Of a stretch of DNA of 28,174 nucleotides, positions 2,875 to 16,122 are shown in pieces. The DNA lies in IMG/VR virus record IMGVR_UViG_2778261156_000003, positions 1-28,174 of that record; one strand, given 5' to 3'. A program made the translations under genes and the position numbers. The stretch's first letter is position 1. Every line of letters starts with the position of its first letter. The DNA comes from a virus. Its lineage: Duplodnaviria > Heunggongvirae > Uroviricota > Caudoviricetes. The notes under the pieces are model-generated. The model was not told where the DNA came from. It worked only from the letters and a program-made list of their open reading frames with translations, and did no database searches.

Positions 2875-2949
<75 letters not shown>

Positions 2950-2952
2950 ATA

Positions 2953-3028
<76 letters not shown>

Positions 3029-4736: not shown

Positions 4737-4846
4737 TTTAAGCTGTGTGGCGTAGTAACCACTCTTAACACGATATAATAATTTTTGCGTACGCGTTAGC
4801 GTTTTTGTATATTCAGCCTAATCCTATGTATTTATGGAAAAATAAG

Positions 4847-5971
4847 ATGAGCAAGCGTGAAATCAAAACTAAAAAAATAATCTATAAAGAAGTCATAATG
4901 TCAGGTGTGTCAAAGACGCTCCAGTCGATACTAATGGAGCTGCTCAAAAAACACACTAAAGCAGATTCTCGCAAGGAAATGGTCAACCCTGGCGAGGAAG
5001 ACTTATTCCGACTAATTAATAAACATGAAGAGTTCCAAGGAATGTTGTTTTGCCAGCTTGTTGCCTTCGAACCAGGCCATTCTCAACGCTATATACAACT
5101 TAAAAATGATGCTGAATCTTATGAAATAAGATCCGTAACATCAGATGAACTTTCTAAAATGACTGTTGAAGAAGCTGAAGAAGCACGCACAGAGAGGGAA
5201 CAGGTTGTGCGTGAGTTTATAGATTCAATTCTTTATTTCGGTATATTTGGTAACAGCATCGTAGTAATGCAATCCAGATCTCTTACAACAAGAGAACTTG
5301 AAACACATCTGAAATGGTTACTTGGCTCTTTAAGCAATTACTTAGGCGCAGAAAACATCTTAAAAGTTTCCGATAAACCCAAAGAAGAGATCATTGAGGA
5401 AGTTCTAAAACGACCTGTAAAATCAGTCTCTATAGGCGCACCTGTAACTGCCGTTAACGAATTGAGACAAGGAAGCAAAAGCCCAAGCTGGGTTCCCGCA
5501 GGAACTGCCTCTGAACTCCTTAAAGCTATGTTAGCAGAGAAATGGGAAAGTTTCTTACGTAGTAGCAAGCTTGAAGATTGTCTTGATGACGCTAATCTTG
5601 AAGTAACACTGAAAATCACATACAAGAGGAAAACTTCTGATTCAGGAGATGAGGATTTATCTCGCAATGAACAAAGAAGGTTAACAAGTCTTATTAAAGA
5701 AAAAAGCCGGGCTACATTATTCATGCTTACGCTACAAATTTCGATAATAATTTTTGTGGCATTGATTAGCCTTGGCAATGAGTCCTCTTTTGTTCAACAG
5801 CACATTCATACTATAAGTGAATTCGTTGTTTGTGCTTTGGTTTTTTCACTATACTCATTAATTCCTGTTTTACTAGGGGTAAAGGAAGTCATTGATTTTG
5901 AAGGATTAATAAAAACACGAAAAACATTAAACAAGCGTAAAAAATCTGCATTATCCAAGCTTGGGAAGTAA
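4847..5971 (+). CDS. AT-rich moron: 374-aa protein with acidic soluble N-terminal domain and C-terminal two-helix membrane hairpin; function unknown (candidate abortive-infection or superinfection-exclusion effector)
   Basis: ATG at 4847 (MSKREIKTKK...) with a -10-like GATATAAT at 4772-4779 upstream. Codon usage is visibly AT-rich compared with flanking phage genes. Two hydrophobic helices (ATLFMLTLQISIIIFVALISLG and ISEFVVCALVFSLYSLIPVLLGV) are followed by a basic tail KTRKTLNKRKKSALSKLGK. It is on the strand opposite all neighbouring phage genes. Confidence 0.75.
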   Translation: MSKREIKTKKIIYKEVIMSGVSKTLQSILMELLKKHTKADSRKEMVNPGEEDLFRLINKHEEFQGMLFCQLVAFEPGHSQRYIQLKNDAESYEIRSVTSDELSKMTVEEAEEARTEREQVVREFIDSILYFGIFGNSIVVMQSRSLTTRELETHLKWLLGSLSNYLGAENILKVSDKPKEEIIEEVLKRPVKSVSIGAPVTAVNELRQGSKSPSWVPAGTASELLKAMLAEKWESFLRSSKLEDCLDDANLEVTLKITYKRKTSDSGDEDLSRNEQRRLTSLIKEKSRATLFMLTLQISIIIFVALISLGNESSFVQQHIHTISEFVVCALVFSLYSLIPVLLGVKEVIDFEGLIKTRKTLNKRKKSALSKLGK

Positions 5972-8336: not shown

Positions 8337-8729
8337 CTACTGCCCTGTTTTAACGAAGTTTTTAAAGGAAACAACTGCCTGATAGGGGTTTGGTTGACAG
8401 CCAAACATATTATCGCAAAAAGGCTTGATGAAAATTCTTGAGGATCCATCTTCATTTGGCATTTTACTCACTTGATAAGCGAGGAATGGACTATTTGGAG
8501 AGGGATTATAAGTGGAAATTAGCGTGTCTGTCGCCGTTTGAATTTTCCATGAGGAATTATTAGCCAACCAGAATTGCGCTCGTTTCCAATAAAAGTCACA
8601 TTGCTTTTCATCATTACATGTTAGTGGCTTCATTGCTTCTGCTTTCAACGCTGGATCGATCTTTGCTGCACACCCTCCCAACATTACTGTTGCAATCATT
8701 ACACCTGCGACTAAAACAAGTTTCTTCAT
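8337..8729 (-). CDS. AT-rich moron: secreted lipoprotein (130 aa; lipobox LGGC; four Cys in mature part), function unknown
   Basis: Product MKKLVLVAGVMIATVMLGGCAAK... is a classic lipoprotein signal peptide. Strong RBS AGGGAG precedes ATG 8729. Low GC. Flanked by terminator-like repeats. Confidence 0.75.
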   Translation of the reverse strand: MKKLVLVAGVMIATVMLGGCAAKIDPALKAEAMKPLTCNDEKQCDFYWKRAQFWLANNSSWKIQTATDTLISTYNPSPNSPFLAYQVSKMPNEDGSSRIFIKPFCDNMFGCQPNPYQAVVSFKNFVKTGQ

Positions 8730-8872
8730 CTCCCTGCCCCATCAATAAAAGTTCGGTTCTCTAATAACTAGAGTTAATCAACGGAAAAAACGCCGAAGCG
8801 GGTTAAGTGCGGGTGCGTTGAGGATGCCTGACACATCAGAGGTGGCGAGGGATTTCTCCCCCGCCAGGTCTC

Positions 8873-9028
8873 TTACTCCTCAGGTTCGTAAGCTGTGAAG
8901 ACAGCGACCTCCGTCTGGCCGGTTCGGATTCGTACCTCGCAGAGGTCTTTCCTCGTTACCAGTGCCGTCACAATGACGGTTAAACAGATGACGATCAGGG
9001 CGATTAACATCGCCTTTTGCTGCTTCAT
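8873..9028 (-). CDS. hokD: Hok/Gef-family type I toxin (HokD/RelF-like)
   Basis: Product MKQQKAMLIALIVICLTVIVTALVTRKDLCEVRIRTGQTEVAVFTAYEPEE matches HokD/RelF as recalled. An in-frame upstream ATG at 9085 could give a mok-like extension. Confidence 0.85.
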   Translation of the reverse strand: MKQQKAMLIALIVICLTVIVTALVTRKDLCEVRIRTGQTEVAVFTAYEPEE

Positions 9029-9264
9029 AGCCTGCTTCTCCTTGCCTTTCGGCACGTAAGAGGCTAACCTAGATTTGCCGTTCATAGATTGAGCCTCAGA
9101 TTAATGTTAAGCGTCTTGCAGGACGCGTAATGTTAACTGGGGCTTTTCTCTATCTGCCTTTGGTGTTCATGCCTGAGACAGATAGCCTCAAGCACCCGCA
9201 GCCATTCTACTTAACTCCCGTTACCTCGCCAATATAAAATCAATCAGAAAGGTGATCCATAAAA

Positions 9265-9951
9265 TCACTCCTTCTCTTCTTTTCCGTAGTGGAGTTGGCC
9301 AATTTTGATAAGAGGGCGTCCCTGAGATTTGCGGTGTAGATTGGTATCGCGCAGAGAATACACACAGCCACAATATTCCTGCTGATAGAATTTTTCGCGC
9401 TTGCTGATTTCAATCATACGGGACGAGCCGCCCTGCTTGCGCCAGTTATAATCCCAGTACACCATACCCGGATAATGCGCAACAGCTCGCCGCCCACACT
9501 CGTTAACCTGCTGCATATTTTTCCAGCGTGAAATGCCCAGTGAACTGCTGATCACACTGAAACCATTTTCAGCAGCGTACAACGCTGTCCGCTCAAAACG
9601 CATGTCAAAACACATGGTACAACGGATCCCCCTCTCAGGCTCCCATTCCATTCCTTTGGCACGTTCAAACCAGTTGTCGGTGTCGTAATCAGCATCGATA
9701 AACGGCACGCCGTGTTGTTCAGCAAAGCGAATATTTTCATCCTTACGAATTAAATACTCTTTCTGAGGATGAATGTTCGGGTTGTAGAAAAAGATGGTGT
9801 AGTCGATTCCCGAGGCCTGAAGCGCCTCCATCACTTCACCGGAACATGGAGCACAGCAAGAGTGCAGTAGTAGTTTGTTTGCCCCGTTTGGGAGCTCCAA
9901 TTTAGGCCGTTTGAAATCAGCAATAGTCATAAATATTTTTATTGGGGTCAT
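9265..9951 (-). CDS. DUF208 protein, epoxyqueuosine reductase QueH-like
   Basis: N-terminal [14 protein letters not shown] motif plus downstream conserved Cys ([17 protein letters not shown]) are characteristic of the QueH/DUF208 family as recalled. Confidence 0.65.
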
Positions 9952-10104
9952 GAAAATAGCACAGAGTGTAGCATCAGAGCAGGTCTATCGGGAATATATG
10001 TCTAAATCTGGTAATATCTGGTTTTGACGCAAAGCGGACAACCACGCTGGCTCTACCCTGCGCCATGAAAATGTCAATTCACATCTGAACTAATGCTCTT
10101 TAAT

Positions 10105-10530
10105 CTAGTAACGTCTAAAATACCTAACATTTCCTTGATAAAATGCCAGTACACGCTGCATAGCTTCGCTCTTCCGGCACTCGCGACAGATTATATTCAG
10201 GCGCCTGTCGTAGCGGCGTATTTCGCCGTCTGGTAACGACCAGATAAGGTCCGGATCAACCACTGCAGGTTTCTTCACCTTTGCCCTTGAGAGTTTTTTG
10301 CGAGCATTTTGCCAGTCCTTACGCGCCTGTTCAGACGGGAATAACCCGTAACCAGAGTTGTATACATCGCCACTGGCAACCAGCTCTCTGGCGAGAACAC
10401 TCATCAGATATCTTGTCGCACCTGTCCTGGCTTCCAGTTGCCGCAACGTCTCGCGACCGCTCAGACGTACAAGTTCAACAACCTGCCCTTTAATTTTTTC
10501 CCGCTCTTCTTGTGTAAATACTTTTGCCAT
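10105..10530 (-). CDS. Hypothetical lambdoid nin-region protein (141 aa), possible DNA-binding protein
   Basis: ATG at 10530 with GGAGG RBS. Product MAKVFTQEEREKIKGQVVELVRLSGRETLRQLEARTGATRYLMSVLAREL...CRECRK... Confidence 0.6.
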   Translation of the reverse strand: MAKVFTQEEREKIKGQVVELVRLSGRETLRQLEARTGATRYLMSVLARELVASGDVYNSGYGLFPSEQARKDWQNARKKLSRAKVKKPAVVDPDLIWSLPDGEIRRYDRRLNIICRECRKSEAMQRVLAFYQGNVRYFRRY

Positions 10531-10545
10531 AAGCGCCTCCGGCAA

Positions 10546-11316
10546 TCACTTTTCCGATACAACACGGCGGGAAGAATCAGTAATCTGTCGAACAATATCC
10601 CGGTGCTTGTTCAGCTCCCGCAGCGCGGCGCAGACTCGCTCCCACTTCTGAACATCACTTTTCGCCCTGCGCAGCGCCAGGTTTGCCCTGCGAAGGGACG
10701 GAAAAATCAGCTCATCTGCTTGCGTTTCGGTAAACGATGGCAACGGCTGCACAATGTCCGCCACAGTTTCTGTTTTAATTTCTTCCTGTGTTGCGGCTTC
10801 CCGGACTGGTAACGCAGCACCTGCTGGCTGAGGAAAGGCCTTACCATCACTTTCCGTTACCAGCGCGGCTTTCGGCTCTGCTGGTAAATTATCGCCCGGC
10901 ATGCAGTAACGAAATTTACCGTTCTGATTAACGCGTGCCAGCCGCCCCGTTGCGGTTACCACCGCCAGCGTGGAAGCAACCTTGCGAGTACTGACACCGA
11001 ACTTACCCGCCAGTTCCTCACACGTTTTAGCCCCATCCTGACCGATAAACTCAATCATCATGTCTGCGGTAACTTTTTGTTCGACCTCCCCGGTCAGCAT
11101 ATCCTGTGCTTCAGATTTTACTGGCCGCTCTTCGGTTACCCGGGATTCACCTTCGCCAGCCAGAAACCAGGTGTGACCAGTTTTATCAACGACGCCTTTT
11201 CTTTTGAGTTCCCACAGCTCGTTGACAGCCTCTTCACGACTGATTCCAAGGCGAGCTGCCACCACATGTGAAGAGGCTTTTTTCAGTGCTTTCAGTGCGT
11301 CAGATACGGTTTCCAT
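10546..11316 (-). CDS. Phage protein with two winged-helix-like segments (DUF1627-like), function unknown
   Basis: Product METVSDALKALKKASSHVVAARLGISREEAVNELWELKRKGVV... with a second HTH-like segment EELAGKFGVSTRKVASTLAVVTATGRLARV. Family name is from memory and uncertain. Confidence 0.6.
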   Translation of the reverse strand: METVSDALKALKKASSHVVAARLGISREEAVNELWELKRKGVVDKTGHTWFLAGEGESRVTEERPVKSEAQDMLTGEVEQKVTADMMIEFIGQDGAKTCEELAGKFGVSTRKVASTLAVVTATGRLARVNQNGKFRYCMPGDNLPAEPKAALVTESDGKAFPQPAGAALPVREAATQEEIKTETVADIVQPLPSFTETQADELIFPSLRRANLALRRAKSDVQKWERVCAALRELNKHRDIVRQITDSSRRVVSEK

Positions 11317-15478: not shown

Positions 15479-15652
15479 TTTTTAAAGTGAATTTTGTGAT
15501 GCGGTGAATGCGGCTAAGCGCACGCGGAACAGTTAAAACCAAAAACAGTGTTATGGGTGGATTCTCTGTATCCGGCGTTAATTGTTAACTGGTTAACGTC
15601 ACCTGGAGGCACCAGGCACCGCATCACAAAACTCATTGTTGAGGGCGCGATA

Positions 15653-15841
15653 ATGAAAACGTTATTACCAAACGTTAATACGTCTGAAGGTTGTTTTGAA
15701 ATTGGTGTCACTATCAGTAATCCTGTATTTACTGAAGATGCCATTAACAAAAGAAAACACGAACGGGAGTTATTAAATAAAGTATGCATTGTTTCAATGC
15801 TGGCCCGTTTACGTCTGATGCCAAAAGGATGTGCACAATGA
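15653..15841 (+). CDS. dicB: Cell-division inhibitor DicB
   Basis: Product MKTLLPNVNTSEGCFEIGVTISNPVFTEDAINKRKHERELLNKVCIVSMLARLRLMPKGCAQ. Confidence 0.9.
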   Translation: MKTLLPNVNTSEGCFEIGVTISNPVFTEDAINKRKHERELLNKVCIVSMLARLRLMPKGCAQ

Positions 15842-16029
15842 ATCCAGTATTTGCACTTATTCTGACGGTTTTTCTTGTTTCCGGAGAGCCAGTTGATATT
15901 GCAGTCAGTGTTCACAGAACAATGCAGGAATGTATGGCAGCAGCAACCGAACAGAAAATTCCAGGCAACTGTTATCCGGTCGATAAAGTTATTCACCAGG
16001 ATAATAACGAAATCCCGGCAGGATTTTAA
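15838..16029 (+). CDS. ydfD: YdfD-like small membrane lysis protein
   Basis: Product MNPVFALILTVFLVSGEPVDIAVSVHRTMQECMAAATEQKIPGNCYPVDKVIHQDNNEIPAGF. Its ATG overlaps the dicB stop (ATGA). Confidence 0.85.
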   Translation: MNPVFALILTVFLVSGEPVDIAVSVHRTMQECMAAATEQKIPGNCYPVDKVIHQDNNEIPAGF

Positions 16030-16122
16030 AACAGCACCGTAATAAATATCCAGTTTCATTCTTATATGTCAGCAATGGCAGAGATTTGTTCACCCTTAAA
16101 TCTGTGATGAGGTTTACCAATA

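Follow-up and report, generated by a model that had tools for sequence, protein, structure and literature searches.

A lambdoid prophage of Escherichia coli carries a conserved QueH homologue that probably completes queuosine without cobalamin

The early half of a Rac/Qin-type lambdoid prophage lies in a 28,174-nucleotide stretch of DNA (hereafter, the window). The prophage is integrated beside tRNA-Ser(CGA) and was found to carry a gene for a protein of the QueH family. Taking the lines of evidence together, it is probable that the gene encodes a functional cobalamin-independent QueH which was captured with its promoter, is carried as a prophage moron and completes queuosine synthesis when cobalamin is scarce. 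This reading is built on the protein family, the fold and the conserved residues, the position of the gene within the prophage, its co-occurrence with queG, the purifying selection acting on it and the chromosomal origin of its relatives. QueH would act as an iron-sulfur enzyme reducing oQ34 to Q34 on the host tRNA-Asn, -Asp, -His and -Tyr, and would thus duplicate the QueG reaction in E. coli. The gene would stem from the chromosome of a different bacterium of the Enterobacterales and would apparently have brought along a short promoter of its own; it would now travel as a moron (cargo dispensable for phage growth) immediately behind the ren-like gene in lambdoid prophages of the Rac/Qin type. 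Its most likely selective value would be that lysogens or infected cells could finish queuosine under cobalamin scarcity. Such a benefit would arise because QueG needs cobalamin and E. coli does not synthesize this cofactor de novo.

The ORF listing of the window contained a single long minus-strand ORF of 228 aa at exactly positions 9265..9951. The sole Pfam match of this ORF was QueH (PF02677; E=1.1e-65). The score of 221.5 bits (cut-off, 23.5) is far past chance level, and the match to the family is full-length, covering positions 1-174 of the 175 in the profile. The ORF contains an N-terminal Cys motif at residues 27-37, followed by RCTMC (C111, C114) and YCGCVYS (C194, C196). The earlier note had proposed a QueH/DUF208 homologue at this place, and this significant match to the DUF208/QueH profile bears the proposal out, as do the fold and the residues described below. 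No NCBIfam model matched the protein, although it is named by PGAP. RefSeq already gives the exact protein the name 'epoxyqueuosine reductase QueH' (WP_000150294.1, 221 aa) in about 1000 E. coli genomes, so we are dealing with a known enzyme and not with a new kind of system.

The coordinates of the ORF had been given correctly in the earlier note, but its first ATG, at 9951, is probably not the start codon. As judged from sequence comparison, translation of queH most likely begins at the ATG at 9930. This is the start called by RefSeq, and the first residue of the chromosomal homologues aligns with M8 of the ORF; in addition, the upstream ATG is replaced by ATT in two relatives (L174 and L094). 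The seven codons between both ATGs encode amino acids that vary among prophage alleles, and they most likely form a non-coding, 5′ untranslated leader. No recognisable Shine-Dalgarno sequence was found before the ATG at 9951 or before that at 9930. In PHROGs, the protein was assigned to phrog_3217, labelled 'unknown function', whose profile aligns only from residue 41 onwards. This late beginning indicates that starts in the underlying phage records were probably mis-called downstream, with the CCxPC motif cut off, and this may be the reason why phage annotation pipelines miss QueH.

Comparison with solved structures was in agreement with the family assignment. A phmmer search against PDB sequences retrieved the QueH protein of T. 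maritima (7lc5; E=8e-22, residues 27-203). When 1.8 billion cluster representatives were searched, 4775 matches at E<=0.001 were obtained; from these, 34 family members with 35-86% identity were aligned, and the alignment served as input for an AlphaFold model of the queH product (mean pLDDT 95.4, pTM 0.91). In Foldseek, this model matched 7lc5 with a TM score of 0.92 (target-normalised), an rmsd of 1.3 Å and E=8e-15, and the next-best folds were distant tRNA enzymes of the adenine-nucleotide alpha-hydrolase/ATP-pyrophosphatase type (E>1e-5). The prophage protein keeps 16 of the 16 residues that are invariant in the 34 sequences (in 221-aa numbering, C25, C26, C29, N52, Y59, R62, E99, R103, C104, C107, R111, K137, Q184, C187, G188 and C189). 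The Cys motifs are also kept: CCxxC near the N-terminus, CxxC in the middle of the protein and CGC near the C-terminus. The prophage protein therefore resembles T. maritima QueH (7lc5, 7lc7, 9deu) in its fold, Cys motifs and full-length profile match, whereas it is only 30% identical, has about 20 extra residues at each end and is encoded on a prophage. A further difference is found at T. maritima D13, the residue mutated by the PDB depositors in entry 9dco, since the corresponding position in prophage QueH is a Cys that is invariant across the 34-sequence alignment.

Analysis of the gene neighborhood placed queH at the boundary of the replication module. On the minus strand, genes for a YdaS-like protein, YdaT, an O-like HTH protein, a DnaC/IstB-like ATPase, DUF1627 and DUF977 precede queH. 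It is followed by hok/sok, a small lipoprotein gene, DUF968, RusA and antiterminator Q, and then by a DNA methyltransferase, tRNA-Thr and tRNA-Gly, and holin and endolysin genes. The host genes mtfA, tRNA-Asn and yeeJ lie on the right side of the window. This lambdoid neighborhood confirms the earlier view that the gene is prophage-borne, and its placement in the nin region also stands, as queH sits between the replication genes and Q, where the nin region of lambda begins. The coordinates of the main features are given in Table 1.

Table 1. Features of the queH region in the window.
Feature	Coordinates	Strand	Remarks
mok/hok ORF	8873..9085	-	Within hok/sok context
hok/sok toxin-antitoxin RNA element	9023..9197	-	Rfam RF01794, 110 bits, E=1e-25; 3′ limit of the queH cassette
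queH CDS	9265..9930	-	221 aa; stop codon 9265-9267; epoxyqueuosine reductase QueH (DUF208, PF02677)
Upstream in-frame codons (n=7, MTPIKIF)	9931..9951	-	Extend the maximal ORF to 228 aa
TGCTACACT, extended -10-like sigma-70 element	9965..9973	-	Putative queH promoter; 43 nt upstream of the start codon
DUF977 gene, Ren-like	10105..10545	-	Last gene of the replication module, upstream of queH; PF06163, E=9e-28; PHROG 142 'Ren-like exclusion protein'

A survey of 80 IMG/VR prophage contigs with an identical QueH protein revealed that the upstream neighbor was DUF977 in 70 of the 72 contigs that could be assessed, as it was in all the E. coli loci inspected. Of the 73 contigs whose downstream side could be assessed, 51 had hok there and the remaining 22 had other cargo, and in other E. 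coli strains this slot is occupied by a KwaB-like defence gene or a DUF1971 gene. The insertion point of queH is thus fixed after DUF977, while the cargo downstream is variable. This arrangement resembles that of lambdoid morons, nin cargo and auxiliary metabolic genes, which share with queH the insertion at a module boundary and the variable neighboring cargo; judging from the sequence, queH would also share with morons its dispensability for phage growth and may, like them, have a promoter of its own. The gene is inserted between conserved phage genes and is missing from 82% of E. coli genomes. It differs from typical morons in that no terminator was found and in a G+C content (about 0.45-0.48) that is only slightly unlike that of its flanks. 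The hok/sok element lies 68 nt downstream of queH in the window; in strain WCHEC4533 (L175) its 5′ hairpin is kept, and hok is replaced by a hypothetical gene and a KwaB-like (Kiwa) gene.

The closest relatives of the protein outside Escherichia and Shigella showed 77-92% amino acid identity and belong to Enterobacter, Scandinavium, Kluyvera, Kosakonia, Erwinia, Pantoea, Pectobacterium, Dickeya, Serratia, Rahnella, Sodalis, Providencia, Proteus, Photorhabdus and other genera. For the chromosomal QueH proteins of Enterobacter, Kluyvera, Erwinia, Pectobacterium, Serratia, Providencia, Proteus and Photorhabdus, the identity was 80-92%. No lambdoid neighbors were observed in 78 genome loci outside Escherichia and Shigella. 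Judged by gene content in the loci inspected (Providencia, Erwinia, Photorhabdus and Enterobacter), the setting is chromosomal: the Erwinia gene lies in the order purL-queH-glrK, that of Providencia adjoins tmcA, purC, bamC and dapA, and that of Photorhabdus is located amid ordinary chromosomal genes. The chromosomal proteins have the same length and a matching start, whereas the prophage copy differs from them in its location between a ren-like gene and hok/sok. The fact that the closest relatives are chromosomal and have no lambdoid neighbors indicates that the E. coli queH is a captured enterobacterial housekeeping gene. Nucleotide BLAST of the Enterobacter flanks against those of Erwinia gave no useful synteny beyond same-species matches. 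In E. hormaechei CP170191.1 (L094 5181..5885), a queH gene 91% identical lies beside the budRABC (acetoin) operon and adjoins a fragment of 234 aa of the phage integrase family, so that this copy may be on a small mobile islet as well.

Inspection of the region 5′ upstream of queH revealed a putative promoter, TGCTACACT, which has the form of an extended -10 element without a -35 and is conserved with the closer chromosomal homologues. A simple promoter scan did not list it, as there is no good -35. In the prophage copies L092 and L093, as in the chromosomal genes of Enterobacter, Scandinavium and Kluyvera, the block TGCTACA[C/A]T was found 42-44 nt ahead of the start codon; in one Erwinia sp. 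(L104, L008) it was found at -40. In most other Erwinia loci, GTGACA is followed at promoter spacing by TACACT or TAAACT, so that a promoter-like element is common to the Enterobacter, Scandinavium, Kluyvera and most Erwinia copies. Apart from this block, the upstream flanks of prophage and chromosomal copies could not be aligned, and its conservation amid unrelated flanks suggests that queH moved together with its promoter. From this element the gene may be expressed in lysogens. No intrinsic-terminator-like sites were detected in 8700..10600, and hence none flanking queH; the hairpin downstream of the gene is part of the hok mRNA. The lack of a terminator between queH and the upstream pR-type operon makes read-through upon induction likely too, and queH expression might even be chiefly lytic read-through instead of lysogenic. 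A search of the queH leader for a preQ1 riboswitch or any other Rfam family, carried out with a permissive E-value, returned no match other than hok/sok, located downstream.

Among 5426 complete E. coli genomes, queH was present in 994, nearly always as a single copy, and absent from 82%, K-12 included. Identity to the gene of the window was at least 99% in 706 of the 994 carriers and went down to about 91% in the others. At least 80% of the gene was kept in 984 of the 994, and all of the 60 records sampled across the ranking of the carriers are annotated in RefSeq as 'epoxyqueuosine reductase QueH'. Carriers include O104:H4, ST131, some O157:H7 and O111 strains, as well as the laboratory strains B, REL606, ATCC 11303, C and ATCC 8739, where the gene resides in a Qin-like prophage. 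The allele of B, REL606, C and ATCC 8739 showed about 94% nucleotide identity to the window (loci L173 in E. coli B-ZidR, NC_012967.1 1619686..1621786 in REL606, NZ_CP029371.1 in C and NZ_CP043852.1 in ATCC 8739). The 45 listed carriers of the strain-B allele did not include BL21(DE3), and nothing is inferred for that strain.

The queG gene was found in 5425 of the same 5426 genomes. These data support the earlier statement that E. coli normally uses QueG, and they indicate that the prophage QueH is an addition to the host pathway and not a substitute for it. With regard to phages, a close copy was carried by a single cultured phage, the temperate Escherichia phage HannyBb, in a set of 50,697 deposited phage genomes, and its position there matches that in the window prophage. 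The remaining tblastn matches fell in faecal contigs without annotation or in doubtful 'phage' records of implausible size. With looser search patterns, the confirmed matches in IMG/VR rose from 187 to just 213, which indicates that almost all copies in viral contigs belong to this E. coli lineage. A 2019 survey of viral deazaguanine genes reported no homologues of QueA, QueG or QueH in the viruses analysed (PMC6884629), and in the literature searchable here no paper discussing a prophage QueH was found. The enzyme family and the RefSeq name are thus known already, while the phage-borne setting is not discussed within that literature.

The possible contribution of the gene to the host pathway is linked to its cofactor. 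According to PMC4646009, which refers to Frey et al. 1988, E. coli depends on cobalamin for the final reaction of Q synthesis, and the cobalamin dependence of the QueG step is also reported in PMC5175355. QueH is described as Fe-dependent (PMC13443448), and PMC5372724, citing Zallot et al. 2017, presents it as a non-orthologous replacement of QueG. Both enzymes have the same predicted reaction, oQ34 to Q34 on tRNA, and their genes occur in the same genomes, but fold and cofactor are unrelated, as QueG needs cobalamin and QueH does not. The two enzymes are carried jointly by S. aureus (PMC13443448) and by S. pyogenes and S. suis (PMC12632869). On the other hand, the pathway of S. pneumoniae naturally ends at oQ (PMC12632869), which counts against a strong claim for the fitness value of the final step. 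The earlier note had spoken of a manipulation of host tRNA modification, a claim that exceeds the evidence. With 80-92% identity to chromosomal QueH and a shared promoter-like element, the gene looks like a captured housekeeping enzyme that carries out its normal reaction. To our knowledge, no phenotype separates oQ-tRNA from Q-tRNA.

Genes for a 7-deazaguanine pathway and the tRNAs of the phage were also searched for. In the prophage part of the window, 20 ORFs were searched, including all of those with at least 180 aa, and none was a homologue of TGT/DpdA, QueA, QueC, QueD, QueE or FolE; the annotation of a related prophage likewise contains no 7-deazaguanine genes between the integrase and the major capsid gene. 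The absence of visible dpdA and queCDE genes, already remarked upon from the letters, is consequently borne out by family searches for ORFs of at least 180 aa. The suggested role in a 7-deazaguanine DNA pathway is not supported by these data, as DpdA/TGT-like and preQ0 genes are missing in both the window and the related prophage. The set of DpdA/TGT-like and FolE/QueD/QueE/QueC proteins typical of phage DNA-modification systems does not accompany queH in either. In its phage part the window encodes tRNAs for Gly(UCC) and Thr(UGU), and the arrays of 48 related queH loci consist of Ile(CAT)-Arg-Arg or Ile(CAT)-Lys-Thr-Gly, with no Q-substrate tRNA in any of the 48. The earlier observation that the phage tRNAs are not queuosine substrates therefore holds in the window and in these loci. 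An enrichment of the phage in NAU codons, which Q decodes, was considered and rejected, the NAU fraction being 0.56 in phage genes and 0.63 in the flanking host genes (n=2). Altogether, what the earlier note observed is confirmed, and its interpretation is partly supported and mostly correct.

The gene is under strong purifying selection within the prophage lineage, with dN/dS values of 0.04-0.065 among prophage alleles at dS up to 0.43 (Nei-Gojobori). This includes defective prophages such as that of strain B, whose late region is disrupted by IS elements and whose queH is intact.

This result bears on the alternative that QueH serves the phage and not the lysogen, being expressed from the delayed-early pR operon to top up Q in lytic growth for translation of late genes. 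We regard this as unlikely. The pR operon would comprise cro-like, O/P-like, ren-like, queH, rusA and Q genes, queH is co-oriented with the replication genes and Q and lies between them, there is no terminator-like site on either side of the gene, and the cultured temperate phage HannyBb has queH at the matching position, all of which would fit a lytic function. However, the promoter-like element of the chromosomal relatives has been kept, phage genes are not enriched in NAU codons (0.56 vs 0.63 in two flanking host genes), and a Q-substrate tRNA is present in 0 of the 48 related loci. Moreover, many carriers are defective prophages in which queH is nevertheless intact with a dN/dS of about 0.05, which suggests that the lysogen benefits. 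A role in the service of the phage alone is therefore considered less likely.

A recruitment of the protein to another substrate is far less probable. QueH could in principle act on another epoxide, on a nucleoside or free base, or in counter-defence, modifying the anticodon loop against a tRNA-cleaving toxin. The neighbors are accessory or defence cargo such as hok/sok and, in another strain, a KwaB-like gene, and PHROGs labels the family 'unknown function', as would be compatible with a new role. On the contrary, the protein is 80-92% identical to chromosomal QueH proteins encoded amid housekeeping genes, every family-invariant residue is kept, PADLOC gave no defence-system match for queH, and no fused or co-varying partner genes were found, the downstream neighbor being variable.

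Still less credible is the reading of queH as a passenger, neutral or in decay, that no longer has a function. It would fit this reading that queH is redundant with queG in essentially every carrier and is missing, with no known consequence, in K-12 and in 82% of E. coli genomes. These points are outweighed in our view by the dN/dS of 0.04-0.065 at dS up to 0.43, by the retention of at least 80% of the gene in 984 of 994 carriers and by the QueH annotation of 60 out of 60 sampled copies. Finally, we know of no oQ or Q in DNA, which counts against participation in a phage 7-deazaguanine DNA-modification pathway, the least probable of the readings considered. Although preQ0-derived bases are used in phage DNA (PMC6884629), DpdA/TGT-like, QueC, QueD, QueE, FolE and QueA proteins are missing from the prophage part of the window, none is annotated in the related prophage from integrase to major capsid gene, and for the viruses covered by the same survey no homologue of QueA, QueG or QueH was reported.

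Returning to the completion of queuosine in the lysogen as the preferred reading, queH is a well-conserved spare gene in a host that already has QueG. What makes it noteworthy is that it is phage-borne, common and strongly conserved, with B12-independent completion of queuosine as a simple and testable explanation. The last step is regarded as strictly cobalamin-dependent in E. coli because K-12 has only QueG. Provided that the enzyme is active, queuosine would be finished without B12 in about 18% of E. coli strains, among them B, C and major pathogenic lineages. The strain background would then alter the oQ/Q status of tRNA in B12-free media, which would matter for comparisons between B and K-12 and for tRNA-modification studies, and the view that phages carry no Q-specific genes would have to be corrected. 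QueH-positive and QueH-negative laboratory strains already exist naturally.

More tentatively, queH could be a lysogenic-conversion gene that renders the last Q step cobalamin-independent in about one fifth of E. coli strains (ST131, O104:H4, some O157:H7, and laboratory B and C). In that case, carriers would have Q where other strains have oQ in B12-poor niches, with possible effects on NAU/NAC decoding, on biofilm formation or virulence, or on sensitivity to anticodon-targeting toxins, and this would be the first documented phage gene specific to the tRNA-queuosine branch. Links of queuosine to virulence and the formation of biofilms have been reported, and it influences how codons for Asn, Asp, His and Tyr are decoded (PMC10570037).

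Two further ORFs and the tRNA array of the window deserve mention. A 181-aa ORF at 15514..16059 (minus strand), opposite the dicB/RecE-like exonuclease region, gave no Pfam, PHROG or PADLOC match and may be a spurious or uncharacterised gene. An ORF of 388 aa at 4805..5971 (plus strand, opposite to that of its neighbors) is located between Q and the DNA N6/N4 methyltransferase; it matched PHROG 3482 and 16807 (unknown function), had no Pfam or PADLOC match and looks like another cargo or moron gene. The tRNA array at 2875..3028 (minus strand) contains only Thr(UGU) and Gly(UCC). In the AR_0077 prophage, otherwise 98.7% identical, the array (L003 5002..5311) holds four tRNAs, Ile(CAT), Lys, Thr and Gly, the Ile(CAT) being of the lysidine type and read as Met by ARAGORN. 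In the window, the region adjoining the array instead holds the methyltransferase and the 388-aa ORF, and their presence beside the shorter array suggests module replacement.
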